A stretch of 64,000 nucleotides of DNA from Candidatus Latescibacterota bacterium. GTDB taxonomy: Bacteria; Latescibacterota; UBA2968; UBA8231. The translations under genes were made by a program, and so were the position numbers. Positions 13,255 through 57,903 of the stretch are shown here, piece by piece. The number at the start of each line of letters is the position of its first letter. The stretch's first letter is position 1. The notes beneath the pieces were generated by a model. It was given only the letters and a program-made list of their open reading frames with translations. It was not told where the DNA came from and made no database searches. The stretch lies in assembly GCA_965203175.1 (NCBI GenBank), contig OZ241867.1:1216001-1280000 (forward strand). Direction: 5' to 3'.

Positions 13255-13330
13255 TGGCTGCCCCCCTAGGGCTCGAACCTAGAACCTCCTGATCCAGAGT
13301 CAGGCGCACTTCCAATTGTGCTAGAGGGCA
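13255..13330 (-). tRNA. tRNA-Gln(CTG)
   Basis: Cloverleaf; anticodon arm CCTGA-CT-CTG-GA-TCAGG; GGTTCGAG; CCA end. Confidence 0.95.
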
Positions 13331-13342
13331 ACTAGCGCAAAT

Positions 13343-13436
<94 letters not shown>

Positions 13437-13458
13437 GCGACCTTCGCAAAATAAACTT

Positions 13459-13500
13459 TTGACGTGCTCCCATCGCTAAAGAGGATGGGATTGTGGCGGC
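13459..13500 (-). mobile_element. Miniature IS200/IS605-type remnant (single hairpin, TTGAT|...TCAA|)
   Basis: Minus strand reads TTGAT|GCCGCCACAATCCCATCCTCTTTAGCGATGGGAGCACGTCAA|. Confidence 0.6.
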
Positions 13501-13513
13501 ATCAAATGGTAAA

Positions 13514-13600
13514 TGGCGGAGGGTGAGGGACTCGAACCCTCAAGGGCGTGAGCCCGGCGGTTTTCAAGACCGCTGCCTTACCAATTAGGTCTAACCCTCC
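13514..13600 (-). tRNA. tRNA-Ser(TGA)
   Basis: Anticodon arm GCGGT-CT-TGA-AA-ACCGC, variable arm, GTTCGAGTC, GCCA end. Confidence 0.95.
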
Positions 13601-19564: not shown

Positions 19565-20728
19565 TCATCCTGTTGGCCGCAGGGGCATTAGTAAGCAGAA
19601 GTAGTCCTCACCTTCCTTTTGTTCCACCGGCCGCAACAGAGCTGCTGTGACGTGGTCATTGAGCTCAAAACGGACCTCGGACGCGTCCATTCTGCGCAGG
19701 ATATCCATCAGATACTGGGCGTTGTAGCCAACCTCTATCTCTTCAGAGGCGTATTGGGCTGGCACGACCTCCCTCGCCTCGCCACCGATCTCGGGGCTGG
19801 CAGCCGATAGCTCCACCTGGCCGCTATTTAGCTTAAAGCGCACTTGACGCGTATAAGAACTAGAGAGAATGGATACCCGGCGTACGGCCGGCAGAAGATC
19901 TTCGCTAGCTATTCTTAATTCTTTTTTGTTGTTTTGAGGAATAACTTGGGCATAGTTGACATAAGGTCCCTCAATCAGACGCGACAGCAAATGCGTGTGT
20001 CCTATATCAAACAGGACCTGTGTCTCGCCCAGCGTGACATTGACCGGCTCCTTATGGCCACCCAGCAATTTGACGATCTGGTTCAATGCTTGGGGGGGGA
20101 CGATGACCGCGGTCTCTTGGTCGTCTTTTACCTGATCCTGTAGATCTATTTCTAGTCTGCAACAGGCTAAGCGCGACCCATCGGTAGCCACCATCTCCAT
20201 TCCCTGAGTATCGATGCGCCAGAGCACCCCGTTGAACACTGGACGCGTATCATCGCCGGAGACGGCAAAGGCTGTCTTGTTGATCATGTCTATTAGGACA
20301 TTAGTCTCGGCCCCGTCCTCCCCTAAACTCAGGCTTACACCGTCAAGTGCTGCCGGCATACTGGGGAATTCTTCCGCTTCTATTCCCGATAGGCTATACG
20401 CTCCTTCGCTGCTCTCGACGGCCCCGGGCCGCCCTGAGAGCTTGAGTCGCTCGTCTTGGACCTCAATACTCAACTCCGCCTCGGGCCATTCTCGGGTGAT
20501 TTCTGCCAGCTTGCGAGCCGAAACAGTCGTCCTCCCTTCCTCTTCTACTACAGCAGCGACTTGAGTTCGGATGGACAAATCTAAATCCGTCGCAGCTAGG
20601 GATAGGGTGTCCCCATCGGCTTCAAGTAGGATATTAGCCAACACCGGTAGGGAAGGCTTTGAAGACACGGCTTCTAATACAGTATCAATGCCCTGCCACA
20701 ATTCATTGCGATTTACTCTTAACTTCAT
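19565..20728 (-). CDS. dnaN: DNA polymerase III beta clamp
   Basis: ATDLD, ATDGSRL, LIEG.Y..Y..VIP, C-terminal LLMPLR. Confidence 0.97.
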   Translation of the reverse strand: MKLRVNRNELWQGIDTVLEAVSSKPSLPVLANILLEADGDTLSLAATDLDLSIRTQVAAVVEEEGRTTVSARKLAEITREWPEAELSIEVQDERLKLSGRPGAVESSEGAYSLSGIEAEEFPSMPAALDGVSLSLGEDGAETNVLIDMINKTAFAVSGDDTRPVFNGVLWRIDTQGMEMVATDGSRLACCRLEIDLQDQVKDDQETAVIVPPQALNQIVKLLGGHKEPVNVTLGETQVLFDIGHTHLLSRLIEGPYVNYAQVIPQNNKKELRIASEDLLPAVRRVSILSSSYTRQVRFKLNSGQVELSAASPEIGGEAREVVPAQYASEEIEVGYNAQYLMDILRRMDASEVRFELNDHVTAALLRPVEQKEGEDYFCLLMPLRPTG

Positions 20729-21296
20729 ACTGCTTCTCAGATGATCCTTCTGCCTGTTTAAAAAACGTTGTTCTTAAAACACTTACATACAAATTTAGCT
20801 TCTGTACTTATTTATGTCAAGGTTCTATTATATAGTGCCCCATTTTTTGCATAAGAGAGAACATAAGAGCAGGTGTGTATAAAAAAACAGAAAGGTGTGT
20901 AATAAGAGTAGTGGCTTAATCCACATTGGTCTTTTAATAAAACTACACTTTTTTGTGTTCTTTTATTTTTTGAAGTTCTAGTTGTACTGTGGATATGTGG
21001 ATAACAGTATTGGAGATTTATTTATATGCAATAAAAATTGTTGTTAATAAAACACTTAAACAACAAAGGGATAACTGCCGGTGAATGCTGGGTCTGTGGA
21101 TTGTCGAGTGGAAAAGTTGAGTTTTGCACAGGCCAGAGGTTAAAAATGCCTGTTTTCTTTTTTGCACAGATTTATCCACATTGAATCAATACCTGGGCGG
21201 GGATAGATGTTAATAGTTTTCCACTGCCAAATAGGCACTATTGTGGTGAAAAATACAGACAGAGGGGACCTAAGACGGCTAAAGAGATGGGGTGGA
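20729..21296. other. oriC (dnaA-dnaN intergenic): AT-rich with a DnaA-box cluster
   Basis: Consensus boxes at 20874-20882 (TGTGTATAA), 20996-21004 (TGTGGATAA) and 21172-21180 (TTATCCACA), plus near matches at 20988, 21107, 21122, 21160 and 21217. Confidence 0.85.
20792..20820 (-). promoter_or_regulatory. Sigma70-type promoter for dnaN
   Basis: TTGACA-N17-TAAATT on the minus strand. Confidence 0.65.
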
Positions 21297-22691
21297 CTAG
21301 TGGTTTTGCCGGCGGATGGTATTGGACAAATCCTCGACTAGCCTGGCGAAGGTGGGATCGTTTTTGCACTTCTTCTCAACGGTGCTTACAGCGTGGATGA
21401 CCGTGCTGTGGTCGCGGTTGCCGAAGTGCAGGCCAATGGTAGTGAAGTGACTGCCGATGAGACTTCTGACTAAGAACATAGCAATGTGACGTGCCGTTAC
21501 CACTTCTTGCTTGCGTCCTTTTCCAGTAAGTAGCTCCTGAGCCAGATTAAAGTGGTCGGCGACCTGCTGTTGGATGGCCTCAATGCTCATTTCCGATGGG
21601 CTAGGGCCCAATTCATCTAGAATATGCTTGGCCGCCTCAATGTCGAGTTCCTTCTTGTGGATTGAGCAGTAGGCCATCAAGCTAATCAACGTACCTTCGA
21701 GTTCGCGGACATTCGATCGGATGTGGTTACCTAACAAAGCGGCCACATCATCGGGAATCCGTATGCCGTTGCGCTCGGCCTTCTTGTGGAGGATGGCAAT
21801 CCGGGTCTCGAGCTCCGGTGGATTTATTGCGGTGGCCAAACCCCATATGAAGCGGGATTTCAATCGTTCTTCTAACCCATCAAGATGACCGGGAGGACTG
21901 TCACAGGTCATGACAATCTGCTTCTCAGACTGGTGCAGGGCATTAAAGGTGTGAAAAAATTCGTTTTGGGTCCGTTCGCCGTGGAGCAGAAACTGGATAT
22001 CGTCGACAAGGAGGATATCCGCGCTGCGGTAGAAATTCTTAAACTCACTCGTCTTATCGCGGTCTCGGAGCGATTGGACGAAATCGCCCATAAATTTTTC
22101 CGAGGTTACGTAAACGACCTTCTCCGCGAGGTTGAGGCTATGAGCGTGATGCCCAATCGCTTGGAGCAGATGCGTTTTACCTAGCCCAGCGCCGCCATAA
22201 ATCACGAGAGGATTAAATTCCGTCTTACCTGGGGCATTGGCTACGGCTAAGGCCGTTGCAAGGGCAATTTGATTGCTATCGCCAATGATAAATTCTTCAA
22301 AGGTATAGCGCTGGTTGAGCGATATTTGATCGGGCCCGGCTTCTGTTTCTACCTCTTCTTCTCGTTCATCTTCTGTGGATTCTTCTTCGCGAGTGGGGAG
22401 AGGGAGTACTGGGTCGAGAGCGGGCTGGGGTGCTTGGGCAACGGCAAAGGAGATTCTTGGGGCCAGCGTCGTCTCTTCCATTACTACTGCTTGAATCATC
22501 TGCAAGTAGTGTTCCTCTACCCAAGCGGCAGAAAATGCACTGGGAACTTGGATGACCAACAAGTCTTCGTCGAATTGGCTTACGGAAGTCTGTTTAAACC
22601 AATTACTAAAACTCTGGGGACGAACCTGACGCTCTATGTTGAGCAGACATTGGGCCCAAAGTTCTTGGGGATCTTGTATTTCCAGTGCCAT
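21297..22691 (-). CDS. dnaA: Chromosomal replication initiator DnaA
   Basis: YTFEEF, NPLVIYGGAGLGKTHL, LLVDDIQF, NVRELEG, RDHSTVIHA. Confidence 0.98.
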   Translation of the reverse strand: MALEIQDPQELWAQCLLNIERQVRPQSFSNWFKQTSVSQFDEDLLVIQVPSAFSAAWVEEHYLQMIQAVVMEETTLAPRISFAVAQAPQPALDPVLPLPTREEESTEDEREEEVETEAGPDQISLNQRYTFEEFIIGDSNQIALATALAVANAPGKTEFNPLVIYGGAGLGKTHLLQAIGHHAHSLNLAEKVVYVTSEKFMGDFVQSLRDRDKTSEFKNFYRSADILLVDDIQFLLHGERTQNEFFHTFNALHQSEKQIVMTCDSPPGHLDGLEERLKSRFIWGLATAINPPELETRIAILHKKAERNGIRIPDDVAALLGNHIRSNVRELEGTLISLMAYCSIHKKELDIEAAKHILDELGPSPSEMSIEAIQQQVADHFNLAQELLTGKGRKQEVVTARHIAMFLVRSLIGSHFTTIGLHFGNRDHSTVIHAVSTVEKKCKNDPTFARLVEDLSNTIRRQNH

Positions 22692-22812
22692 TTATTGAGC
22701 GAGTGTCGCAATTTTTAAGGGGGGTTTTCAACCTATGAAGAAGGCATATGCCAGTCAAGAGTTTCCACCGAATTTGTTGTTAAAATTTACTAGCGTCCGA
22801 AGAGCTAAAGTA

Positions 22813-22841
22813 TTGACACTAATTGGAATAGCCACTAAATT
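22813..22841 (+). promoter_or_regulatory. Sigma70-type promoter for the rpmH operon
   Basis: TTGACA-N17-TAAATT. Confidence 0.65.
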
Positions 22842-22889
22842 GAACCGTTTATATGTATGCTGTGCAGAACTAACATGAGGTGAGATTTT

Positions 22890-23024
22890 TTGAAACGCAC
22901 ATTTCAACCCAGCAACAGGCGCCGCCGCAACAAGCATGGCTTTCGCAAGCGCATGAGCACACCGGCCGGTCGCAATATCATCAATCGTCGTCGTCGGAAG
23001 GGCCGCAAGCAGCTAGCAGTCTAG
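22890..23024 (+). CDS. rpmH: 50S ribosomal protein L34
   Basis: Manual translation from TTG: [44 protein letters not shown]. Confidence 0.97.
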
Positions 23025-23027
23025 CGT

Positions 23028-23288
23028 TTGATGGCTTGGATTAGGGGCCGCTGCTTTTGGATCCGTTGCGATCGGGAAGATCGCGGTCAAATCTTCGTCG
23101 TCCGACGCAAACTGGGCAATGCTGTAAAGCGCAATCGGCTCAAACGGCGCCTGCGTAGCATTTGCCGAAGCCGCCCGTACTTTCCTCGCAATCTAGTCGT
23201 TTTTTGCCAACCGTCAGCCGTCGAAGCTCCCTTTATTGACTTGGAAAGGGAACTGGATTTCTTGGTACCAAATCTTGTCCCACGATGA
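23028..23288 (+). CDS. rnpA: RNase P protein component (unusually short)
   Basis: RNR motif [16 protein letters not shown]; located between rpmH and yidD. Confidence 0.85.
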
Positions 23289-23494
23289 AGCAAATCGTCA
23301 TTTTCCTCGTCCGCGCCTATCGTCTTCTCCTGTCTCCATATTTCCCCCCATCCTGTCGTTATCAACCTACTTGTTCCCAATATGCCGAAGAAGCACTAGA
23401 TAAGTACGGGGCACTCAAGGGCGGGATGATTGCGTTAAAGCGGATTAGTCGATGCCATCCTTGGGGAGGGAGCGGATACGATCCTCTACGATAG
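23285..23494 (+). CDS. yidD: Membrane protein insertion efficiency factor YidD
   Basis: [26 protein letters not shown]. Confidence 0.95.
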
Positions 23495-23533
23495 TTTAAT
23501 AACATGTTGTTTATAAAAGGGTAAGTAAAACTT

Positions 23534-25288
23534 ATGGAAGATAAGCGGACTCTGTTGGCCTTTCTTTTCATAGGCCTGATTTTCCTCTTGCTTCCCTTCT
23601 ATAATGAATGGATGGGGCTAAATCCTAAGCCTCAGTCTCCGTCGCAGGAATCGGTGGAACAAAAGCCGGTACCTGAAACAGAACCTGTTGCTGAAGAGCA
23701 ATATGAGGCCGAGAGCATACGAGATCCCGAGTCTGCGAAACAGCTCCTTTCGGAAGGGGAAGGACCAGCACCCGTTGAGTCTCAGGCCATTGAAAGGGTC
23801 GAATCGGCCTTTACCTCAGAAGATAGAGCGGACACAATTGTAGTACAAACACCGCTTCAGAGATTTGAAGTCTCTACAAAGGGCGGTACCATTATATCAT
23901 GTAAACTATTAAAATACAAATACCTATCGAAGGAAAATTCCATTCGGAGGGGCCAGCATCCGGATGGAAGTATTATCGAACTGCTACCTCCAACCGGCAG
24001 CGGCTTGGGCATTCATCTACAGAGAGCAAACTACAGGGAGGATATCTCCTCGGCGGAGTTTGTTGCCAATCAGTCGAGTTTGCAGATAGGACCCGGGGAA
24101 GAGCGCTCCCTAACTATGGTTGCCGAACTCGGGGGAGGCAGGAGACTGGAAAAAGTCTTGACCTTTAATGGGGACCGCTATGGATTCGATCTCCAGGTGC
24201 GCTACGAAGGGTTTGACGACGATACAGAAGCCATACTCACTTGGAAAAACGGCATAGCGTTTACCGAGCGCGAGCCGGAGATTGACCTACCTGAAATGCG
24301 GGCTTTTGCCTATATCAACGAAGAACGGGTTGAACTCAAGGTGGATGATGGGGAATCGGACGAATTGGAGGACAAAGGATTACTGAAATGGGCGGGTATT
24401 CGCAACAAGTACTTCTTGATTTCCTACATCCCCGTCGATAGAGAGCAGCGTTCTCGCGTCGTCCTGCAGGGCGATCACCAAGAGTCGCAATTGTGGCCCG
24501 AGTATTCTTTTCAGCTAGGTCGGCGGCTCGAACGGTCTGGTTCTTGGCACAATACCATTTATCTCGGCCCACTCAATTACGACGAACTCGTCGGCTATGA
24601 GGCTGAATTAGAGCAGGCCATTGATTTCGGTTGGCCGATCGTAAGTCAAATAAGCCGCTTTCTACTTATTCTATTCATAGCGACCCATCAATATGTCCCC
24701 AACTATGGTTGGATCATCGTCCTGTTTGCCGTTGTCATCAAAATTCTCGTCTATCCGCTTACGCACAAAACGTATGAGTCTGCGGCGAAAATGCAGGAAC
24801 TTCAGCCGAAAATTACGGCGCTACGCGAGAAGTACAAAAACGACAATCAACGCCTGAGCCGAGAGACCATGAAGCTCTATAAGGAAGAAGGCGTCAATCC
24901 TCTTAGTGGGTGTCTGCCTCTCTTGTTGCAGATGCCCATTTTCATTGCGCTGTACAATCTTTTTGGCAAAACAATCGAGTTGCGCCAGGCCTCCTTTATT
25001 CTCTGGATACAAGATCTTTCCCTTCCTGACGAGTTGCTTATCGGCGGTTTCGGTCTTCATGTTCTGCCCTTGTTAATGGCGGTCTCCATGTTCATCCAAC
25101 AGAAGATGACGATGAAGGATCCCAAGCAGGCCGTTCTGGTTTACATGATGCCCGTACTGATGATCTTCATCTTTTGGAACATGTCGTCGGGATTAGTGCT
25201 TTACTGGACTATCTTCAATGTTTTGACCATTGGCCAGCAGCTATTGGTCAATCATTTTAAGAAAGAAGCCGCTCCTTCCAGCACTTGA
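23534..25288 (+). CDS. yidC: Membrane protein insertase YidC
   Basis: NYGWII, KMQELQPK, GVNPLSGCLPLLLQMPIF, GLVLYW. Confidence 0.96.
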   Translation: MEDKRTLLAFLFIGLIFLLLPFYNEWMGLNPKPQSPSQESVEQKPVPETEPVAEEQYEAESIRDPESAKQLLSEGEGPAPVESQAIERVESAFTSEDRADTIVVQTPLQRFEVSTKGGTIISCKLLKYKYLSKENSIRRGQHPDGSIIELLPPTGSGLGIHLQRANYREDISSAEFVANQSSLQIGPGEERSLTMVAELGGGRRLEKVLTFNGDRYGFDLQVRYEGFDDDTEAILTWKNGIAFTEREPEIDLPEMRAFAYINEERVELKVDDGESDELEDKGLLKWAGIRNKYFLISYIPVDREQRSRVVLQGDHQESQLWPEYSFQLGRRLERSGSWHNTIYLGPLNYDELVGYEAELEQAIDFGWPIVSQISRFLLILFIATHQYVPNYGWIIVLFAVVIKILVYPLTHKTYESAAKMQELQPKITALREKYKNDNQRLSRETMKLYKEEGVNPLSGCLPLLLQMPIFIALYNLFGKTIELRQASFILWIQDLSLPDELLIGGFGLHVLPLLMAVSMFIQQKMTMKDPKQAVLVYMMPVLMIFIFWNMSSGLVLYWTIFNVLTIGQQLLVNHFKKEAAPSST

Positions 25289-26673
25289 AATTTCAGCCGG
25301 ACCGCGAATCCTTGATACAGCCGGATACTGTTGTCGCTATCTCTACGCCACGGGGGGAGGGGGGGATCGGGATCGTGCGTTTGAGTGGACCTGCCGCTCT
25401 ATCTATTAGCCAGCAGATTTTTCGCTCCCATCCACCGCTCGGCAAGCGAGTCCGATACGTCGAATACGGGCGTATATGGGCTGGTGGTCGAGCAATCGAC
25501 ACGGGCGTCGCTTGGGTCTTTGCTGCGCCGCACTCTTATACCTGTGAAGATACCGTCGAGATTAGTTGCCACGGCAGCATGGTCGTATTAGAGTCCGTCG
25601 TCGAGGAAGCGCTTCGCTTAGGGGCCGTCGCCGCCGCTCCAGGAGAGTTTACTCGTCGAGCGTTTCTCAATGGCCGATTGGACTTATTAGAAGCTGAGGC
25701 TGTAATTGACCTCATCCAGGCTAGCTCTAAAGCGCATCTCGATAGTGCCTATGGTTTGGCCAGTGGCCGTCTATCTAAGATGGTAAAAGAGCTTAAGAGT
25801 CAGTTGGTTAAGATGCTATCATTGCTTGAGATAGGGCTCGATTTTTCCGACGAAGACGTCGATAGTATCGGGCGTCAAGAAATACAGACCGCGCTGCGCA
25901 AGGTGGTTGAGTCCTCTTTGCGGCTTGCCGAAACGTTCGAGGGAACAAGGCGTCGTCAAGAGGGATATTTAGTCGTGCTCATCGGGCGTCCCAACGTAGG
26001 TAAGTCCACGTTGCTCAACGTGTTGCTCGGTGAAGATCGGGCGATAGTTACTCCCGTGCCAGGAACGACGCGAGACTTAGTAGAAGGTCGGACTACATGG
26101 GCAGGAGAGACGATTCGGCTAGTCGATACGGCTGGGATTAGGCAAAGCCATAACCTGATCGAAAAAGAGGGAATTGAACGAGCGTCTCAGGCGGTCGGGG
26201 AAGCCGATGTGGTTTTAGCGGTATTCGACAGTTCGACCGAGTCGTGTGATGACGATATAGCTGTGTTAGACCTACTCCCGTCTGACAAGAAGTCAATTGC
26301 TGTCTTCAACAAGATTGATTTGCCGGGTACTAGTACTCGATCTAAGATAGAATCACGGACCTCGGTAACCGTTGAAATATCAGCACTTAGGGAGTTCGGT
26401 ATTGAAAAATTAAAGAGGGAAGTGGCTGCCGAATTGCCCCATAGGGCGGAAATAGACGGAATCGGGATCACCCGTCAACGCCATCAAGATTGCCTCTTGC
26501 GGGTAGCTAAATCCAGTGCTGTAGCAGAGGAGCTAATGAGATCCAGCCAGCTCGATGAGTGCGTCGTGGCCGAGCTTCAAGACGCCTTGAATGCCCTAGG
26601 TGAGATGTTGGGAGAGACGGTAGAAGAGGAAGTGCTTGATTCCATCTTCTCCCAATTTTGTATCGGCAAGTAA
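25285..26673 (+). CDS. mnmE: tRNA modification GTPase MnmE
   Basis: GIGIVRLSG, GEFTRRAFLNGR, GRPNVGKST, GTTRD, DTAG, C-terminal FCIGK. Confidence 0.97.
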   Translation: MKFQPDRESLIQPDTVVAISTPRGEGGIGIVRLSGPAALSISQQIFRSHPPLGKRVRYVEYGRIWAGGRAIDTGVAWVFAAPHSYTCEDTVEISCHGSMVVLESVVEEALRLGAVAAAPGEFTRRAFLNGRLDLLEAEAVIDLIQASSKAHLDSAYGLASGRLSKMVKELKSQLVKMLSLLEIGLDFSDEDVDSIGRQEIQTALRKVVESSLRLAETFEGTRRRQEGYLVVLIGRPNVGKSTLLNVLLGEDRAIVTPVPGTTRDLVEGRTTWAGETIRLVDTAGIRQSHNLIEKEGIERASQAVGEADVVLAVFDSSTESCDDDIAVLDLLPSDKKSIAVFNKIDLPGTSTRSKIESRTSVTVEISALREFGIEKLKREVAAELPHRAEIDGIGITRQRHQDCLLRVAKSSAVAEELMRSSQLDECVVAELQDALNALGEMLGETVEEEVLDSIFSQFCIGK

Positions 26674-26689
26674 TGTTCCACGTGGAACA
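26674..26689. promoter_or_regulatory. parS site 1 (TGTTCCACGTGGAACA)
   Basis: Perfect 16-bp palindrome matching the parS consensus; origin-proximal. Confidence 0.9.
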
Positions 26690-26745
26690 CTTGAGTCGGC
26701 TCGATGCAACTCGGAAAGTTTCGTGGAGCATGTTGATAAGTTCAA

Positions 26746-26761
26746 TGTTCCACGTGGAACA
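26746..26761. promoter_or_regulatory. parS site 2 (TGTTCCACGTGGAACA)
   Basis: Identical palindrome starting 72 bp after site 1. Confidence 0.9.
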
Positions 26762-26770
26762 TATTTTGAT

Positions 26771-27376
26771 ATGGTAATTAAACTGCCATCTGATATTCGT
26801 GAAGACTTTGAGCGATTAAAGAGAAAAAGAATGCAATCTCGTTCTTTTGAGGATGTCTGGCCTAAGCTGGAAATATATCTATACCTCTTGAGTCGGTGGT
26901 CGAGAAGAGTCAACCTTGTCTCTCGGCGAGATTTGTCCGTCGTAGCAACTAAGCACTTGAGACAGGCATTGACTATGGTCCCAATTGTAATAAGTATCCC
27001 TCGTCGGCTGGTTATGGATATAGGATCAGGAGCTGGATTTCCAGCCATTCCATTGAAGATCGCTCTTCCCGACTCATACTTTATTCTCGTTGAAGGCAGG
27101 AGGAAGCGGGCGCACTTCCTCAAGGAGGTTGTGCGATCTGTGGGGCTTGATCGCATAGAGGTTGTAAACGACCGGATAGAAAATCTGAGTCCCGTGGGAG
27201 CGGATTTGGTCACTGCGAGGGCGGTGGCGTCTCCAGATAAACTGCTTGATTTAGCACAAAGACATTTATCACCGCATGGTTGGATTCTTTCAACACTGGG
27301 AAAAGATGCTGCCCATTCGGAGTTGTTGGCATGGAAGACAGATCGAGTGGGGAGCACATCAGGGCTATTGCACTAA
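26771..27376 (+). CDS. rsmG: 16S rRNA m7G527 methyltransferase RsmG
   Basis: W..RVNLVS, DIGSGAGFPAIPL, KRAHFL, VTARAVA. Start placed after the parS sites. Confidence 0.9.
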   Translation: MVIKLPSDIREDFERLKRKRMQSRSFEDVWPKLEIYLYLLSRWSRRVNLVSRRDLSVVATKHLRQALTMVPIVISIPRRLVMDIGSGAGFPAIPLKIALPDSYFILVEGRRKRAHFLKEVVRSVGLDRIEVVNDRIENLSPVGADLVTARAVASPDKLLDLAQRHLSPHGWILSTLGKDAAHSELLAWKTDRVGSTSGLLH

Positions 27377-27439
27377 TTGCTAGCGTTGATAGGCCAGCAG
27401 GACCTTATAAGCCCAAATAATCGGGCGTTCCGCGTGTAG

Positions 27440-27610
27440 TTTTACCCATACTTATCCACACTCAAAAGCAAAAGAACTATGGAGTTTAGGCACTTTGGAG
27501 GACTTCTATGTCTAATTTTATCCAATAGATAGGCTGTGATTTAGCGAAGTGTTGAGTAGAGCCGATGAGGTATAGTGTGGAAAACTTGTTCTTAAGAAAG
27601 TGGAAAACTC
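27440..27610. promoter_or_regulatory. Second DnaA-box cluster
   Basis: TTATCCACA at 27452-27460, TTATCCAAT at 27518, TGTGGAAAA at 27576, AGTGGAAAA at 27599, in an AT-rich intergenic region. Confidence 0.55.
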
Positions 27611-27719
27611 TACGGTAAATCCTTTGGAAGAAAGGAAAAAAACAAGTATATTTTTAACTTAGTTTCCGAGGACACGGGGTCCCAATGGCCGCCTAAGCGC
27701 CGGCAAAATAGGTTGTTTT

Positions 27720-28337
27720 TTGCTAGATAAATATCTGAAAAAGTGGTGTCTGGTCATTCTTAGACCGTTGGCACATTTGTTTATTCGTTTGGGCTTCAGG
27801 CCCGATTGGCTAACGCTGATGGGACTAGTTTTGAACGTGGGGGCAACCGCGGCTTTTGCCAAGGGTTATTTACAATGGGGAGCTCTCATTATGATGGTTG
27901 CGGGTCTCTGCGACATCCTAGATGGACAAGTTGCAAGAGAAGGCCACAAGGAAACCAAATTTGGAGCCCTATTGGATTCGACTACAGATAGGTACTCTGA
28001 GATATTTATTTATTTTGGAATCGGTGCGTATTTGATTGGCCGCGATGAGTGGATTCCCTCGGGGATTCTCTTTTTTGCAATTACTGGTTCGCTGATGGTT
28101 AGTTATGTAAGGGCTCGTGCAGAGGGGCTGGGCGAGGATTGCAAAGTGGGCTTCATGCAGCGTCCTGAACGTCTAACTGCCTTGGCTGTGGGGTGTCTGA
28201 TAGGCCATCAAGGTTTGGTTTTTGTGCTGGTTTTATTGGCCGTTACGACCAACTATACAGTTGTTGAGCGCCTCGCTCATATCCGCAACAGGCTGAAATC
28301 TGGTCCCAATTCACCCGCCTCAGTCCAGCAGTCCTGA
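27720..28337 (+). CDS. CDP-alcohol phosphatidyltransferase
   Basis: DILDGQVAR...FGALLDSTTDR, VSYVRARAE, GFMQRPER. Confidence 0.9.
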   Translation: MLDKYLKKWCLVILRPLAHLFIRLGFRPDWLTLMGLVLNVGATAAFAKGYLQWGALIMMVAGLCDILDGQVAREGHKETKFGALLDSTTDRYSEIFIYFGIGAYLIGRDEWIPSGILFFAITGSLMVSYVRARAEGLGEDCKVGFMQRPERLTALAVGCLIGHQGLVFVLVLLAVTTNYTVVERLAHIRNRLKSGPNSPASVQQS

Positions 28338-36317: not shown

Positions 36318-37133
36318 CTAAGAGAAATCCCTCTTAACCAGCAGCGGCATAATGGCGGGTTGGCGGCTGAGAAGCAGGAGGCCGGCAAGTAGGATTAGGC
36401 TGGCGAGGAGGGCCAAGGGCATGGGGAGATGTTGGGAGGGGCCTATGCCATTTATGCCTAGATGAGTGTGCAGGTTGACTCCAGTTATCGAAGCCAAGTT
36501 GTTGACCGCGTGGGCGAGCATGGCAGGATAGATGCTGTGAGTCCAGTAAACCAAAGCGCCGAGGAAGAGTCCAAAGAGGAAGAGGGGGATTAGTTGCCAA
36601 GGGTTGAAGTGCGAGATGGCGAAGAGCAGGGCCGAGCCGCCTAGCGCCCAACGCGGCCCATAATGGGCGTAAAGACTCGTGAACACAAGTCCGCGGAAGA
36701 GCGGCTCTTCGCAGAATGTAGGGACTAGCACTAGTGTTACCAGTCCCCTCGGGACCTCCGCCAGTCCGCGGATAATCTGAACCTCCAGTAGGTTTTTCTG
36801 AAAGGACAGTGGCATAGATAAGTCTATCCGGTCGAACAACTGGGCCAGATACAAATCGAATTCGGCGACTACGAGGCTACAGCAAACAGTCACCGGGATT
36901 GTCAGCAACAGAGTCGCAGCTGGCGTGGCATTGAACAGAAGCAGGTCTTCGGCGATTAGGCGATGACGGCGGATATAAAGGGCCACAAACCACAGCAGGG
37001 TACATTCGGCAGCAATAATACCAGCATGTAGGGATAAAAGCCCGACGATGGGCCAAACTACGAAGTGAGCCAGCAGGAGAGTAGGTAGAGTTACGCGGAG
37101 AATCTGGGAAAATTGGGGGTAGTGAGCATGCAT
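36318..37133 (-). CDS. CPBP-family (CAAX/Abi) intramembrane metalloprotease
   Basis: EEPLFRG, FAISH, HAVNN motifs; hydrophobic. Start uncertain. Confidence 0.85.
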   Translation of the reverse strand: MHAHYPQFSQILRVTLPTLLLAHFVVWPIVGLLSLHAGIIAAECTLLWFVALYIRRHRLIAEDLLLFNATPAATLLLTIPVTVCCSLVVAEFDLYLAQLFDRIDLSMPLSFQKNLLEVQIIRGLAEVPRGLVTLVLVPTFCEEPLFRGLVFTSLYAHYGPRWALGGSALLFAISHFNPWQLIPLFLFGLFLGALVYWTHSIYPAMLAHAVNNLASITGVNLHTHLGINGIGPSQHLPMPLALLASLILLAGLLLLSRQPAIMPLLVKRDFS

Positions 37134-37164
37134 AGGGCTATTTAGAGAGTCTGCTAGGTAGTTG

Positions 37165-38106
37165 TTAAGACGCCTTTGAATGGGCAATCGCCTGTAGATA
37201 ACCCCGAGTGCGGCTGGACCAGAACAAATAACTAAAAAACAGCCCCGGGACATAGGTTTTCACAAGCCAGCGGGTCAACCAGCGAATTGGATAGTGGATC
37301 AGCGGCAACAGGGCTAGCTGGAGCGCGAGCCGCCGAGGAGAAAACGCCGAGGCCCTGATAAAGTCCAATCGAAGTACGGCGTCAAGTTCGGGATGCTTAT
37401 TTAAAAGGATGGGGATTGACTTGTTGCCGTAGGTTTGCATCAGACGGCAAAGTGGCTCCAATGAACGCAAGTGATAGTGATAGGACAGGGCTTCAGGGGC
37501 ATAATAAAGCGGAATACCCGCCAAATGGAGGCGATACCCCAATTCTAGGTCTTCGCCGCCATAAGCAGTGAGATCCTCGTCGAAAAAACCCACGCGGAGC
37601 AGGCTCGATCGGCGAACTGAGGAGTTACCGGTGACGAAGCAGTTGAAAGGTATGGGCTTATCCTCGTCGACCCTGTGGACCCCCCTCCCTTCGATATAGC
37701 GGGTCAGGGAGGTGTTGGGAATTTCACTGGCGAAGCGGACGTTGCCAACAAAAACGGCTTCCTCGTGGTTTTGATGCCGTTGGACATGGGCGCGGAGAAA
37801 ATTGGAGCCGACGATCATGTCGCTGTCGAGAAAGATGACGATCTCGCCGCTGGCGACCCGCAGTGCTGTGTTGCGGGTCCGAGCGCGGCCCTGGTTCTGT
37901 TCGTTGCGAAGCAGCCGCAATTGCAAAGGCGCAACTGCCGCATGCGACCGCTCGGAGTCCAAGTGGGGAGAAGCATCGTCCACCACGATGATTTGGATTG
38001 CCTCGTGGGGGTAATCTTGCTGAGACAGGCTCTTAAGTGCCGCTTCGAGGCGCTCAGGCTCGTCATAGGTAGGCATTACGACGCTGAGCGTCAGCGGGGC
38101 ACTCAT
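37165..38106 (-). CDS. Glycosyltransferase family 2
   Basis: SVVMPTY, VVDDAS, FLDSD, GFFDE...GGEDLELGYRL. Confidence 0.9.
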   Translation of the reverse strand: MSAPLTLSVVMPTYDEPERLEAALKSLSQQDYPHEAIQIIVVDDASPHLDSERSHAAVAPLQLRLLRNEQNQGRARTRNTALRVASGEIVIFLDSDMIVGSNFLRAHVQRHQNHEEAVFVGNVRFASEIPNTSLTRYIEGRGVHRVDEDKPIPFNCFVTGNSSVRRSSLLRVGFFDEDLTAYGGEDLELGYRLHLAGIPLYYAPEALSYHYHLRSLEPLCRLMQTYGNKSIPILLNKHPELDAVLRLDFIRASAFSPRRLALQLALLPLIHYPIRWLTRWLVKTYVPGLFFSYLFWSSRTRGYLQAIAHSKAS

Positions 38107-39218
38107 GCTAAGGTTGCGTAAAGCTGGGTGAGTTGGACAGATTCCCGTTCCCAGTTATAGTATTGTGCCGCCTGCAAACTCGCCTTGGCACACGCCTCTC
38201 GCTGTTCTGCATTGCCCAAAAAAGCGGCGATCTGCTCTCTAATGGCAGCTATATCGGTTGGATCGACCGTAGCTCCGGTACGCGTTTCCCGGATGATGCG
38301 CTGCATTTCAGGAAAGTTGCTGGCTAAGACCGGTAGCCCGGCCATCATATATTCAAAGAGCTTGTTGGGCAGAGAGTAGTAGAAGCTCTTGCCTGTGCCT
38401 TTGATCAGACACAGCCCCAAGTCGGCCGAGCAAGTATAATTGTGAAGTTGGTGAAAGGGCACCCGAGGAATAAAATAGACCCGATCTTCTAGGCCCGCAG
38501 CGCGGACTTGATTCCTCAGGGCCTGTTCGCTAGGGCCGTCCCCAATTAGAACTAGGGCGGCGGTAAGCCCAGCGGCGGCCTCAATTTGCTCGCGCAAACC
38601 GTTTTCGGTGAGGAAACCCCCTTGGTAGAGAACAATAGGGCGGTCATCGGGTAGTTCCAGCGTTTCGCGTATCAGGTTGCTTTGGACCTTATGGCGGAAT
38701 AGCGGCAAATTGCGCAGAACAACAACCTCGTCAAGGCGGTAACGCTCCCTGAGTGATTGGGCGATAGACCCGCTGACGGTTATGACGCGATCTATCCGTC
38801 TTATCAGCCGTCTCTCTAGCAAATGCCAGCAGGACCGCATGAGCGGTCGGTTGACCAGTGAGGATTGTTCGGTCCAAAATTCGTGCGCGTCATAGACGAT
38901 AGGCCGATCTAGTCGCTGTGCAGCCCGCACTGCTGGCCAGAGCGAGTCTAGATCGTGGGCGTGATAGGCGTCTGGATGGATATCGACTAGCAGTGGATAG
39001 GCTCGCTGCCAAAACAAAGGATAGAGGCGGCGTAGCGAGCGGCTTCGGTCTAGCTGGATCGGATGTATTTCAAAATCGTCCCATCCCTTGAGCGGGGCTG
39101 GATTGAACGAGGAAGCGACGATGACGACTTGGTGACCTGCACGGAGCAGCGAAGTGGCCTCTCGGTAGATGCGGTAGTCGAAATTCAGGTCGGTGAAGGC
39201 GACCATACAGATACGCAT
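38103..39218 (-). CDS. Glycosyltransferase family 4
   Basis: HAHDLD, YDAHE, LPNKLFEYMMAGLPVLAS. Confidence 0.9.
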   Translation of the reverse strand: MRICMVAFTDLNFDYRIYREATSLLRAGHQVVIVASSFNPAPLKGWDDFEIHPIQLDRSRSLRRLYPLFWQRAYPLLVDIHPDAYHAHDLDSLWPAVRAAQRLDRPIVYDAHEFWTEQSSLVNRPLMRSCWHLLERRLIRRIDRVITVSGSIAQSLRERYRLDEVVVLRNLPLFRHKVQSNLIRETLELPDDRPIVLYQGGFLTENGLREQIEAAAGLTAALVLIGDGPSEQALRNQVRAAGLEDRVYFIPRVPFHQLHNYTCSADLGLCLIKGTGKSFYYSLPNKLFEYMMAGLPVLASNFPEMQRIIRETRTGATVDPTDIAAIREQIAAFLGNAEQREACAKASLQAAQYYNWERESVQLTQLYATLA

Positions 39219-39242
39219 GGCGTATATACAAGGAAAAAGAAT

Positions 39243-39278
39243 AAAATAAAAAGCAGCCCATCTAAAAATGGGCTGCTT
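39243..39278 (-). terminator. Intrinsic terminator closing the candidate sRNA
   Basis: AAGCAGCCCAT/ATGGGCTGCTT stem followed on the minus strand by TTTATTTTATT. Confidence 0.8.
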
Positions 39279-39450
39279 ATAAAATTAAAGAGTATGGCGG
39301 CCAGATGGTGTGATCTTGAAACGCAAGTGAGATCCTCAAACGAGGCGGTGTGGGGAGGTAGTTTTGAAGATCTCAACGACCCGAAAAGGGAAATCCGAGC
39401 TTCGCGGATCAGGATTTTGGCCACGCTAGCGGACCGCCACACTCTATTTA
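39245..39450 (-). ncRNA. Candidate structured small RNA (~200 nt)
   Basis: Own promoter and terminator; 14-bp closing stem (39432-39445 with 39289-39302) and 12-bp inner stem (39363-39374 with 39329-39340). All non-Watson-Crick pairs are G-U on this strand. Confidence 0.65.
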
Positions 39451-39456
39451 GAAACA

Positions 39457-39485
39457 AAAATACACACGCTAGATTGTGTTGTCAA
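39457..39485 (-). promoter_or_regulatory. Sigma70 promoter of the candidate sRNA, containing a CACA-N8-TGTG operator
   Basis: TTGACA-N17-TATTTT with extended TG; the spacer carries CACACGCTAGATTGTG. Confidence 0.65.
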
Positions 39486-39522
39486 GTAGAAAAGCACAAG
39501 CATGGAAAATGATAACGAAGTC

Positions 39523-39551
39523 TTGCACACTTACAAGTGTGTGCGTATATT
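39523..39551 (+). promoter_or_regulatory. Sigma70 promoter of the XRE gene with a palindromic operator
   Basis: TTGCAC-N17-TATATT; operator CACACTT-AC-AAGTGTG at 39526-39541. Confidence 0.65.
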
Positions 39552-39591
39552 TGACAGAGGAGATGGTTGAAAGCAATTCAGGGGGATCGCG

Positions 39592-40125
39592 ATGCAGTTT
39601 GCTGAAATGATCAAGGAGGCGCGGCTACAAGCTAAGCTAAGTCAGCAGAGATTGGCCGACCAACTCGTGACGGCGCGAAAGCCCGAGGGCGTTTGGGCAA
39701 CCTATATAGGACAAATTGAAAAGGGAGAGAAAGTTCCTTCCGACGAGGTGTGTATCAAGTTAGCCGAGGTTTTGGAGCTCGACTCCAACATCGTATTGAT
39801 TGCGGCTTATGAGGCCAAGGCGAGTTCGGAGGAGGGACGCGCGCTCTATGGCAAGATGATGCGCTCGCTGTCGGACCCAGTGGTCAATAAACTCCTATCT
39901 AGTGAAGAACCTTTGGATCCAGCCCTGTTGGGGGTGCTTTCCAACCCAGAAATAGCGGTTCTGCTCGGGGATCAACCGTGGTTAGAGGCCGTTGTCCGGG
40001 CGCGCAAGAACCAGAAGGAACGCGATGTATTGGGTCTGCTCGAGAAAGTAGAGGCGATGAACGACACACAGTGGGATACGATAATGGGCATTATAGCGAC
40101 TTGGGATTTGAAGCCGTCTAGCTGA
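39592..40125 (+). CDS. XRE-family HTH transcriptional regulator
   Basis: IKEARLQAKLSQQRLA...TYIGQIEKGEKVPS...KLAEVL. Confidence 0.85.
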   Translation: MQFAEMIKEARLQAKLSQQRLADQLVTARKPEGVWATYIGQIEKGEKVPSDEVCIKLAEVLELDSNIVLIAAYEAKASSEEGRALYGKMMRSLSDPVVNKLLSSEEPLDPALLGVLSNPEIAVLLGDQPWLEAVVRARKNQKERDVLGLLEKVEAMNDTQWDTIMGIIATWDLKPSS

Positions 40126-40191: not shown

Positions 40192-40680
40192 TTAGAAGTC
40201 GGGTAGTTTATACTCCCCGCGCTCAATGGCTTGCTCTAACTCTTGGTGGAAGGTGCTGTCTAGGTGGGAGGTAATTTTCCAACCGCTGGAATCGCGAATA
40301 AAATAAAAGAATGGCGACGCACGCTCATCTCCTAGCGTGGAGGCATCGAAGAGTAAGTAACCTATGCGCTCGTTGATAATGCGCTCTTCGGCGATTTCGC
40401 GCCGCAGTTGCGCCTTTATCTCGGCCGGCGTCTTTTGCCGCCAGCGTTCGACAAAGCCCTGACGATCTTCTCCCTCTATTTGCGAAGAACTGAAACATTC
40501 CCAAAGCAGATCAAAGTCGCTGTTTTCTAGCGCATACTTATAGGTCTGGAAAGTCTGGACCGGATGGGAGAAGCGTTGGTCTATGTCTTCACTAGCACAG
40601 CCGTGAAGGAGGGCGAGGCAAAGAAATAGTTGTAGGGCCATAGTGCGTAGCGCAAGGATCAGTATCTTGAGCAATGTCAA
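40192..40680 (-). CDS. Hypothetical lipoprotein
   Basis: Hydrophobic stretch followed by an LHGC lipobox. Start is 40641 or 40680. Confidence 0.6.
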   Translation of the reverse strand: MTLLKILILALRTMALQLFLCLALLHGCASEDIDQRFSHPVQTFQTYKYALENSDFDLLWECFSSSQIEGEDRQGFVERWRQKTPAEIKAQLRREIAEERIINERIGYLLFDASTLGDERASPFFYFIRDSSGWKITSHLDSTFHQELEQAIERGEYKLPDF

Positions 40681-40721: not shown

Positions 40722-41417
40722 TCAGCGCTTGGCTTTATTAACGAGTAATTCGATGGCGTCGCGCAGCCGGGCAGCTTCTTCGTATTCTTCGCAGATAACG
40801 GCCTGCTGTAGCTGATGCTGAAGCAGGCTGAGCTCGTCTTTTTCTTCTTTGGGGGGCCGTTGAGCTTCGGCCTCTTCGGCGTTCCGCTTCGGTGGACGGA
40901 TGTTCGCCGTATCTGTATCTATATTGAGCGATCTAGAAATCTGCGCCTCAAACTCGTAGAAGCGGTTCAATGTGTGTTCGAGATCCAAGTCGGTTTCCAA
41001 AGGCTCCAAGCCCACCTCATCGAGCAACGCATGAGAAGCGTAGATAGGCGAATCAGTACGCAAGGCCAAAGCGATGGCGTCGCTGGGACGTGCGTCGATG
41101 TCTTTTATTGTGTGATTCTTCTCAATGACGACCCTCGCGTAGTAGATTGAGTGGTGCACGTTGTGAATGACAACGTGACGCACATTTATCGCAAGGTTGT
41201 TGACCATAGAAGAGAGCAAGTCGTAGGAAATCGGGCGTATGGGCCCATCGTTTTCTAGCCGCATCCGAATGGCGGCGGCCTCAAATTCGCCAATGGGAAT
41301 GGGCAAGAGCCGTGGCAGTTCTCCCTCCTTCTCGCTCAACCATACCAAGGGTCTATCCTCGCGCAAATAGGGACTCACCTTGACCACGGTCATCTCGACT
41401 AAAGAGGTGTTACTCAT
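40722..41417 (-). CDS. Bifunctional nuclease family (DUF151) with UvrB/UvrC motif, paralog 1
   Basis: LPIPIGEFEA, RPISYDL, IDARPSDAIALA, EEYEEAARLRD. Confidence 0.9.
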   Translation of the reverse strand: MSNTSLVEMTVVKVSPYLREDRPLVWLSEKEGELPRLLPIPIGEFEAAAIRMRLENDGPIRPISYDLLSSMVNNLAINVRHVVIHNVHHSIYYARVVIEKNHTIKDIDARPSDAIALALRTDSPIYASHALLDEVGLEPLETDLDLEHTLNRFYEFEAQISRSLNIDTDTANIRPPKRNAEEAEAQRPPKEEKDELSLLQHQLQQAVICEEYEEAARLRDAIELLVNKAKR

Positions 41418-42034
41418 TAATCATCCTCGTTGAGACGACTAATCTCGTCGCGAAGCCTCGCCGCCTCCTCGTATATTTCTTCGGCGACAGCTTGGCGCAT
41501 GCGTCTTTTTAGTTGTTCTAGCTGATTGACGGCTGGTGGGGAAATGATGGGATGGTCACCCTGCGATGCGGCCACAGGTTTGGCGAGGGCTTCAACGTCG
41601 GCCTTAACCCATTCGTCATCGTTAGAGCGAACGCAGCCTTCCTCTTTGAGGATTTTGATGGCGGCGTAGATCGGCGCGCGAAAGCGCAAGGCTAGGGCAA
41701 TTGCATCGCTGGGGCGTGCATCGAGAGTATGGGTCTTACCCTCATCGTCAACGAGGAGAATCTCGGCATAGTACGTTCTCTCGCGTAAGTTAAAGTCAGT
41801 GATTTCGACCCGGACTACCCGGGCATCGACATTGGCGAGAATCTGATGAGCTAGGTCATAACTGATGGGACGCGCGGGTCGCCGCTTGCTGTGGGCCATA
41901 GAAATGGCAGCCGCCTCAAAGCGGCCGATGACAATGTGCAGATAATAGTTGCCCTCGACTTCTTTGAGTACTACTTCAGGGTATAAAGATTGAGATTTGC
42001 TGCTTAAGACCTCCTTAACTTCCATCAGAACCAT
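41417..42034 (-). CDS. Bifunctional nuclease family (DUF151) with UvrB/UvrC motif, paralog 2
   Basis: IGRFEA, RPISYDL, LDARPSDAIALA, EIYEEAARLRDEI. Confidence 0.9.
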   Translation of the reverse strand: MVLMEVKEVLSSKSQSLYPEVVLKEVEGNYYLHIVIGRFEAAAISMAHSKRRPARPISYDLAHQILANVDARVVRVEITDFNLRERTYYAEILLVDDEGKTHTLDARPSDAIALALRFRAPIYAAIKILKEEGCVRSNDDEWVKADVEALAKPVAASQGDHPIISPPAVNQLEQLKRRMRQAVAEEIYEEAARLRDEISRLNEDD

Positions 42035-57828: not shown

Positions 57829-57903
57829 AGCCCGGTCGTTCAATTGGTAGGACAACGGATTTTGGTTCCGTTTATCGAGGTTCGAGTCCTCGCCGGGCTG
57901 CCA
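57829..57903 (+). tRNA. tRNA-Gln(TTG)
   Basis: Anticodon arm ACGGA-TT-TTG-GT-TCCGT; GGTTCGAGTCC; CCA end; canonical position after ispE. Confidence 0.95.

Follow-up and report, generated by a model that had tools for sequence, protein, structure and literature searches.

Introduction

Small RNAs (sRNAs) of the RsaE/RoxS type use C-rich loops to pair with G-rich, Shine–Dalgarno (SD)-like sites on messenger RNAs (mRNAs). Other sRNAs are encoded divergently from the gene of a regulator, as in the pairs oxyR-oxyS, gcvA-gcvB and sgrR-sgrS, the last with terminator read-through into setA. Latescibacterota belong to the Fibrobacterota–Chlorobiota–Bacteroidota (FCB) group and have, to our knowledge, no cultured model; the listings returned by a full-text literature search on regulatory RNAs of this phylum contained incidental co-mentions only.

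Here we describe a 208-nt stretch (39243-39450, minus strand) that forms a folded unit in a 64-kb window, that is, the whole stretch of a Latescibacterota contig that was analysed. The unit lies divergently from a gene for an XRE-family helix-turn-helix (HTH) regulator and upstream of a co-oriented GT4-GT2-CPBP operon. The data presented below define a real non-coding RNA family of Latescibacterota, absent from Rfam 15, a bacterial regulatory RNA next to a regulator, with the XRE protein as the likely repressor of the adjoining RNA gene.

Results

A first-pass annotation, made from the sequence of the window, had proposed at this position an unannotated structured RNA with its own leftward promoter, a strong terminator and an exposed C-rich loop, and this picture is supported by our analysis. 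The putative promoter, TTGACA-17-TATTTT, scores 10/12 positions, and the predicted terminator is a 12-bp stem followed by a T-run. Transcription likely starts at about 39450-39448, as judged from the promoter spacing only. The minimum free energy of the minus strand of 39243-39450 is -78.5 kcal/mol (z = -7.2), a value equalled by 0/200 shuffles, and the plus strand of the same stretch folds less well (z = -5.5). In the predicted fold, both the 14-bp closing stem and the inner stem, which presents the 22-nt loop ACUACCUCCCCACACCGCCUCG, are found exactly as they had been drawn.

Homologues had been expected upstream of XRE orthologues. The XRE protein has 115 homologues, with identities from 100% down to 35%. 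With the divergent XRE gene as anchor, an alignment of 45 XRE proteins led to 60 loci (designated by L numbers), all from metagenome-assembled genomes labelled Candidatus Latescibacterota or, for some, Gemmatimonadota. An nhmmer search with the window RNA found it in 41 loci, and a covariance model built from 41 sequences (R1) found it in 42/60 loci plus the window; we refer to this form as type A. Each locus has one copy only, which lies 143-300 nt from the XRE start and in every case runs divergently from XRE. The copy of L027 is cut by a contig end, and that of L045, at 57.8 bits, is the most divergent. Relative to the window copy, the core is 55-73% identical in the 11 copies furthest from it and 76-99% identical in the remaining 30 loci; across the same range, identity falls to 36% for XRE and 53% for GT4. 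No second copy was found in the window, and a blastn search with the RNA gave no match among plasmid and phage records. The promoter is letter-for-letter identical among close relatives, and distant groups have a -10-like box 7-13 nt 5' of the closing helix P1. The terminator stem covaries among relatives and, by eye, is absent or weak in L039 and L045 only.

The conserved fold consists of a long closing rod (P1, a variable middle and P2), which opens into a three-way junction with the hairpins P3 and P4 (Table 1). P1 has 13 bp with the consensus GAGUGUGGCGGUC/GRCCGCCAYACUC. P2 has 5 bp, with compensatory changes in 3/5 pairs; P3 has 6 bp and the loop consensus AUUYCCCUUU, the C-rich part of which is UUYCCCY; and 7/12 stem pairs of P4 show compensatory changes. 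All together, the five helices comprise 37 pairs, at which 99.1% of cells are paired; 13 of these pairs show compensatory changes in an alignment of 42 copies (40 distinct) that was model-guided and hence fitted to the structure. None of 500 shuffles reached any of five covariation measures, and in slid controls, in which partners were shifted by 1-3 columns, only 35-47% of cells were paired. An independent MAFFT/RNAalifold alignment gave compensatory changes in 18/47 pairs, terminator included.

The fold departs from the first-pass drawing in two small side hairpins, AUCCG/CGGAU and CCC/GGG, which are not conserved. Many relatives have AUACG in place of AUCCG, and L031-L033 have CGAG in place of CGGG, with the pairing retained as GCUCGA/UCGAGU; P2 (CGCGA/UUGCG) and P3 (GCUCGG/UCGGGU) are supported instead. 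As to the strand, G-U is the commonest pair type (7/37 pairs), and R1 scores the minus strand at 115-184 bits for all full-length copies except L045, against 17-23 bits for the plus strand. Therefore, the minus strand proposed in the first-pass annotation is not in doubt.

The middle of the rod is irregular and variable, with pairwise duplexes of -3.4 to -20.9 kcal/mol. The candidate helices P1b (GCGUG/CACAC) and P1c (UCYUGA/UCAAGA) and a mini-hairpin proposed by RNAalifold all fit the data, the alignment being too unreliable here to choose among them; P1b has a C-A mismatch in 29/40 sequences. In L002:4687-4710 and L004:4687-4710 (minus strand), the P1 3' strand is tandemly duplicated by 10 nt (GGCCGCCACA), which provides two alternative 3' partners for P1. 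Past the closing helix the RNA is directly U-rich: in the window (39281-39296, minus strand) the end of P1 and the linker read CUCUUUAAUUUU, and in distant copies CUCUUKAUUUU. This segment resembles a boxA-type antitermination box, and the linker might serve as a U-tract for P1.

Two exposed C-rich motifs, UUYCCCY in the P3 loop and CCUCCCCAC in the P4 loop, are nearly invariant. The top-base frequency is 0.95 in the P4 loop, where 12/24 columns are invariant, 0.92 in the P3 loop and 0.95 in the P1 5' strand (7/11 columns invariant), compared to 0.66-0.78 in the middle rod and 0.64 in J3/4, which has no invariant column. Over 41 distinct sequences, the predicted unpaired probability is 0.93 for the P4 loop and 0.98 for the C-run of the P3 loop, against 0.38 for the whole RNA. 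Inspection of the alignment showed no conserved G-rich single-stranded partner within the RNA, which points to a partner outside it. A conserved unpaired pocket at the junction or in internal loops, as found in riboswitches, was not observed, the conservation residing in P1 and the hairpin loops instead. A combination of exposed, conserved loops with covarying stems and a loosely conserved junction is what is expected of contact sites for an outside partner, not of a metabolite pocket.

The scan against Rfam 15 that had been proposed with 6S RNA in mind returned no family at the locus: at the gathering score the whole window gave four tRNAs only, and at E<=10 the region 39100-39650 gave only short terminator-driven matches, with no 6S, RsaE or leader family.

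Table 1. Positions of the RNA, its parts and the associated genes and sites (window coordinates unless a locus is named).
Feature	Position	Strand	Remarks
Conserved RNA core, 156 nt	39289..39444	-	Covariance model R1, 182 bits here
RNA promoter, sigma-70-type (putative)	39457..39485	-	-35 TTGACA 39485-39480, 17-nt spacer, -10 TATTTT 39462-39457
P1 5' strand GAGUGUGGCGGUC	39432..39444	-	Nearly invariant; alignment and covariation
P1 3' strand GGCCGCCAUACUC	39290..39302	-	Followed by U-rich linker; helix 1, 99.8% of cells paired
P2 5' strand CGCGA	39402..39406	-	Partner UUGCG at 39322-39326; helix 3
P3 hairpin GCUCGG/UCGGGU	39379..39400	-	C-rich loop AUUUCCCUUU at 39385-39394; helix 4
P4 hairpin	39328..39375	-	12-bp stem UGAGAUCUUCAA/UUGAGGAUCUCA; 22-24-nt loop 39340-39363 containing CCUCCCCACACCGCCUCG; helix 5
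Intrinsic terminator (predicted)	39241..39278	-	12-bp GC-rich stem 39278-39251, 4-nt loop, then U-run
Palindrome O1, ACACA-N8-TGTGT	39462..39479		Within RNA promoter spacer; presumed XRE site
Palindrome O2, GCACACTT-N-AAGTGTGC	39524..39545		At XRE promoter
XRE-family HTH regulator, 177 aa	39592..40125	+	Pfam HTH_3, HTH_31, HTH_19; divergent from RNA
GT4-GT2-CPBP operon	36318..39218	-	Co-oriented; Pfam and NCBIfam; GT4 ATG at 39218
GT4 glycosyltransferase	38103-39218	-	Pfam
GT2, EpsD-like below cut-off	37165-38106	-	Pfam, NCBIfam
CPBP/Rce1-like protease	36318-37253	-	Pfam, NCBIfam
Type B RNA, example	L041:4634-4869	-	nhmmer profile

In all 42/42 type A loci the RNA is divergent from the regulator gene. 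The AlphaFold2 (AF2) model of the XRE protein (mean predicted local distance difference test score, pLDDT, 89.6) shows an N-terminal DNA-binding HTH and an all-helical C-terminal domain. Foldseek matched it only to HTH domains of the repressor type (P22 c2, SinR, C.BclI and DdrO, all at E>=2e-3); the confidently modelled C-terminal half (residues ~78-177) had no match among solved structures or Pfam families. An operator-like pattern, counted as ACA[CG]-N3-12-[CG]TGT at <=70 nt upstream of P1, is present near P1 in 38/42 copies, compared to 83/5000 control windows (1.7%), and a palindrome nearer the XRE gene is found in 42/42 copies. Since an operator-like palindrome lies in the promoter spacer and a repressor-type HTH is encoded next door, XRE probably switches the RNA on and off. 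The simple reading of these motifs is that XRE would bind at, and control, both divergent promoters.

Between the RNA and XRE, L023-L030 have three operator-like palindromes about 64 nt apart, roughly six helical turns, a spacing suggestive of an XRE protein that binds cooperatively or forms loops. The P3 loop of the close group complements the SD sequence of XRE, which reads AGAGGGA, or GGGGGA in the window. A feedback of the P3 loop on the XRE mRNA was considered and dropped as a general mechanism, because the XRE starts of distant type A loci have no G-rich site.

A rearranged relative of the RNA, type B, was first seen as weak hits (13-15 bits, E ~0.3-0.6) of the covariance model, run with filters off, in three supposedly RNA-less loci. 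By nhmmer profile, type B is present in 10/60 loci (L038, L040-L043, L047, L048, L052, L055 and L057) and was not found in the window; all together, 52/60 XRE loci bear a type A or a type B RNA. Type B is ~240-290 nt long and has the same promoter as type A (CTTGACAAYACACACTTGASAGCGTATATTTT). In an alignment of nine loci, RNAalifold gave 47 pairs, 20 of them with compensatory changes. One hairpin shows compensatory changes in 7/10 stem pairs and has an invariant CUCCCCAC in its loop; an operator palindrome lies inside the transcript, which also has two further hairpins. The G-rich/C-rich closing helix GGUGGGGAGGGUAAACC/GGUUUACCCUCCCCA encloses a hairpin with GAUUCCCCUUU in the loop and is followed by a U-run.

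The stretch GCUCNGAUUCCCCUUU lies in P3 of type A and recurs in the inner hairpin of type B, an argument for their common descent. The two types also share the CUCCCCAC and GAUUCCCCUUU loops, the XRE gene and the promoter. The first-pass annotation had pointed to ACCUCC in the loop as complementary to SD sequences; the core common to the type B relatives is instead CUCCCCAC. The downstream gene differs between the types, so what constantly accompanies the loops is the XRE gene with its promoter. Specifically, a 115-aa coiled-coil protein that belongs to no known family is encoded in 8/10 type B loci, namely 7/9 of those with the RNA next to XRE plus L043, and its gene lies directly downstream of the RNA where positions were compared. 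In L043, type B is 1.9 kb from XRE, with an apparent transposase remnant between them (L043:3400-4200, read by eye).

Downstream of type A, the GT4 ATG lies 57-94 nt past the core in 38/41 full-length loci plus the window, where it is found 32 nt past the terminator stem and has no SD sequence. The exceptions are L054, with inserted transposase fragments, L034, with a gap of ~230 nt, and L059, with a 567-aa gene and a distant GT4-like gene. GT4 orthologues occur in 40/42 RNA-bearing loci and in 0/18 of the other loci, and the GT4-GT2-CPBP operon comes after type A in 40/42 loci. A pyrimidine-rich spacer that lacks an SD sequence precedes GT4 in every group, whereas XRE does have an SD sequence. 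No promoter was detected between the terminator and the GT4 ATG; therefore, GT4 is probably expressed by terminator read-through, which is compatible with a cis role. A TTGATT-N17-CATCTT sequence, read by eye, overlaps the terminator in L023-L037 and would be a candidate for a hidden GT4 promoter in the 3' end of the RNA; it matches at only 8/12 positions and is also explained by the terminator sequence.

Window positions 39219-39250 and the orthologous spacers are pyrimidine-rich, G-poor and often end in CGCCAUG; those of L036 and L037 repeat 11 nt of the P4 loop, CCGCCUCGUUU. The transposase-like fragments of L054, which lie between RNA and GT4 (L054:3100-4100), and those of L043 indicate that the module can be split on either side of the RNA.

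Among the neighbouring genes, sucCD converge from the other side of the locus. Two tandem paralogues, both of which combine a UVR motif with a bifunctional-nuclease (BFN) domain, occupy 40722-42034 on the minus strand and adjoin the gene of a 162-aa protein (40192-40680), which is syntenic in 38 loci. Searches of Pfam and NCBIfam gave no family for this protein, for the product of the 567-aa gene of L059 or for the type B coiled-coil protein. Elsewhere in the window, the region 20001-28000 has a G+C content of 0.47-0.51, compared to 0.55-0.62 in the rest, and may be a foreign or specialised gene block. A cluster of three tRNAs lies at 13258-13600 (minus strand) and a single tRNA gene at 57829-57900 (plus strand).

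Discussion

The explanation that we favour, with a probability of roughly 0.4, is an XRE-controlled regulatory RNA whose C-rich loops would act on G-rich, SD-like sequences and whose read-through would feed the downstream operon. Specifically, a ~200-nt non-coding RNA would be transcribed leftward from the promoter with the XRE operator in its spacer, and the XRE protein would switch it on and off via this operator. The junction would display the two hairpins, with the loops UUYCCCY (P3) and CCUCCCCAC... (P4) as functional ends. Most transcripts would end at the intrinsic terminator, giving a discrete small RNA, and the C-rich loops may then pair with G-rich SD-like sites of target mRNAs and so control their translation or stability. 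Read-through of the terminator, which we liken to that of sgrS-setA, would supply the GT4-GT2-CPBP operon from the same XRE-controlled promoter.

In favour of such an action, the organism uses SD sequences: an SD-like 4-mer precedes 23/50 crude open reading frame starts, and some genes have GGAGG-type sites. Several observations weigh against this explanation, starting with the search for targets, which covered the 64-kb window plus 10 kb per genome. The first-pass annotation had proposed a trans action on such sequences; nothing above background was found for it, either with the P3 and P4 loops on the 50 start regions of the window or in the 10-kb loci. The best P4-loop duplex among the 50 start regions reached -24.5 kcal/mol, against a random-window 1% tail of -23.9, and this is chance level because 50 trials would give the 1% tail. 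By sliding the loop along the type A loci (the rows of L034, L054 and L036 were invalid), positionally conserved sites were not found beyond close relatives. In addition, both P1 strands are almost invariant, beyond what a plain base-pairing sRNA requires. Finally, the RNA is always upstream of, and co-oriented with, a gene, no promoter was detected before the GT4 ATG, and L039 and L045 have no obvious terminator; this constant position, the absent GT4 promoter and the terminator-less loci fit a cis-acting leader equally well.

In a purely cis-acting 5' leader or attenuator, the XRE-controlled promoter would be the operon promoter and the short RNA a mere by-product, with the structured leader and its terminator setting the flow of polymerase to GT4 by way of a factor on the C-rich loops, or of Rho on the C-rich, G-poor RNA. 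We regard this as a serious rival, somewhat less probable than the explanation that we favour. The first-pass annotation had named an attenuator of the glycosyltransferase genes as an alternative, and this part of it is still a live rival: GT4 starts 24-45 nt past the terminator with no recognisable promoter between, at a near-constant distance from the core, and GT4 keeps to RNA-bearing loci. In L001 the separation is only ~24 U-rich nt, and in L039 and L045, which have no clear terminator, the GT4 mRNA probably includes the RNA. The pyrimidine-rich spacer without an SD sequence is found in all groups, and type B also precedes a co-oriented gene in 7/9 XRE-adjacent loci plus L043. By eye, the P1 5' strand GGCGGU...GUGG can pair in a switch-like way with CCACACCGCC of the P4 loop, and in type B GUGGGGAG can pair with the CUCCCCAC loop or with the 3' strand CCCUCCCCA. 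Such a leader is harder to reconcile with an alignment in which inspection, with no formal suboptimal-fold search, gave no alternative pairing between core and canonical terminator, and in which an 11-nt linker separates P1 from the terminator. The terminator arms vary by lineage (GCAGCCCAU, GGCGACCCAUC, CGCGCAGCUCAUC) while the core is fixed; P1, with 13-14 bp, is very stable and ill suited to ligand-dependent opening; and the junction is poorly conserved, unlike that of metabolite-binding aptamers. Moreover, types A and B precede unrelated genes with no apparent common metabolic logic, and the RNA of L059 precedes other genes and a promoter-like site. It is unlikely, in our judgement, that the RNA works by binding a protein, the invariant C-rich and CACAC loops and P1 being sites for a protein that is titrated or delivered: a KH- or S1-type RNA-binding protein, RNA polymerase, or XRE itself through operator mimicry. 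The invariance of both P1 strands and of 12/24 loop columns does exceed pairing needs, CACAC/GUGUG recur in P1, in the 3' rod and in the P4 loop and resemble operator half-sites, and no RNA target was found in the window or in the loci searched; however, no gene for an RNA-binding protein is linked to the locus, and the XRE model is an ordinary DNA-binding HTH, nothing like an RNA-binding fold.

A conformational switch common to types A and B, in which an outside partner on the loop sets RNA release and downstream expression, appears to us improbable and is put forward as a speculation. In this scheme one G-rich strand, GUGUGGCGG for type A and GUGGGGAGG for type B, would pair either with the C-rich 3' strand, so that the molecule is closed, or with the invariant C-rich hairpin loop. 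By eye, the P1 5' strand of type A is complementary both to its partner, the P1 3' strand, and, with interruptions, to CCACACCGCC; GUGGGGAG of type B is complementary to both the CUCCCCAC loop and CCCUCCCCA; and in both types a U-rich tract follows the 3' strand. Such mutual complementarity among three segments would hold all of them constant, as they are found to be, and it suggests a switch; the segments involved hardly vary, so covariation is uninformative on the alternative pairing. The outside partner might be a protein, for instance the XRE regulator, or else the ribosome or a G-rich segment of an mRNA or ribosomal RNA. If true, the RNA would be a sensor, linked to a repressor, for which no relative has been described. 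The other alternative of the first-pass annotation, a divergent 6S RNA, would imitate an open promoter and tie up the RNA polymerase holoenzyme; we reject it as very improbable. The resemblance of the RNA to 6S RNA (RF00013, 6S-like) lies in the size of ~160-200 nt and in 5' and 3' ends paired in a long irregular closing rod, but no 6S family matched even at E<=10 in the 551-nt search, the three-way junction, with 2-3 nt on its 3' side, takes the place of a two-sided central bubble, the best-conserved part is a terminal loop, which is unimportant in 6S, and the gene appears to be under a dedicated repressor. That there is no RNA function at all, conservation being due to DNA-level operators or to a small protein gene, is hardly credible. 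Operator-like motifs are abundant and open frames cross the core in close relatives, but the compensatory changes maintain pairing, the G-U pairs would be A-C on the other strand, and the covariance scores, L045 included, are far higher on the minus strand. A protein-coding gene was rejected, the frame being open through the core in only 22/42 copies and several distant copies being stopped in all six frames, and so was a retron non-coding RNA, with GT4, GT2 and CPBP and no reverse transcriptase directly downstream.

The RNA family described here is well supported, comes in two architectures, is probably under a dedicated repressor and is linked to cell-envelope glycosyltransferase genes. Operator, promoter, RNA and loops together provide a defined handle on gene regulation in Latescibacterota, and the family could readily be proposed as an Rfam entry. 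Should the loops act on ribosome-binding sites, riboregulation by C-rich seeds would extend from Firmicutes into the FCB group.

In comparison with known systems, the locus recalls the leaders of polysaccharide operons (EAR, put-type antitermination RNAs, riboswitches) in that a promoter precedes the RNA, a glycosyltransferase operon follows it, and the leader contains a terminator. The locus differs from these in having no Rfam match, no antiterminator alternative to the canonical terminator and no conserved junction pocket, and in that type B precedes an unrelated gene. With RsaE/RoxS and similar sRNAs of staphylococci and Bacillus it has in common C-rich loop motifs (UCCC/CCCC), a probable dedicated transcription factor, its own promoter and terminator, and the proposed action on G-rich ribosome-binding sites. 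This likeness is functional only: there is no Rfam or sequence similarity, and the Latescibacterota RNA is about twice as long, has a closing rod and a three-way junction, and comes from the FCB group. As in the divergent regulator–sRNA pairs, the RNA lies opposite the gene of the factor, palindromes are found at the promoter, and the downstream gene is probably reached by read-through. Here, however, the factor is a phage-repressor-like XRE protein with its putative operator in the promoter spacer, an arrangement that suggests repression, not activation.

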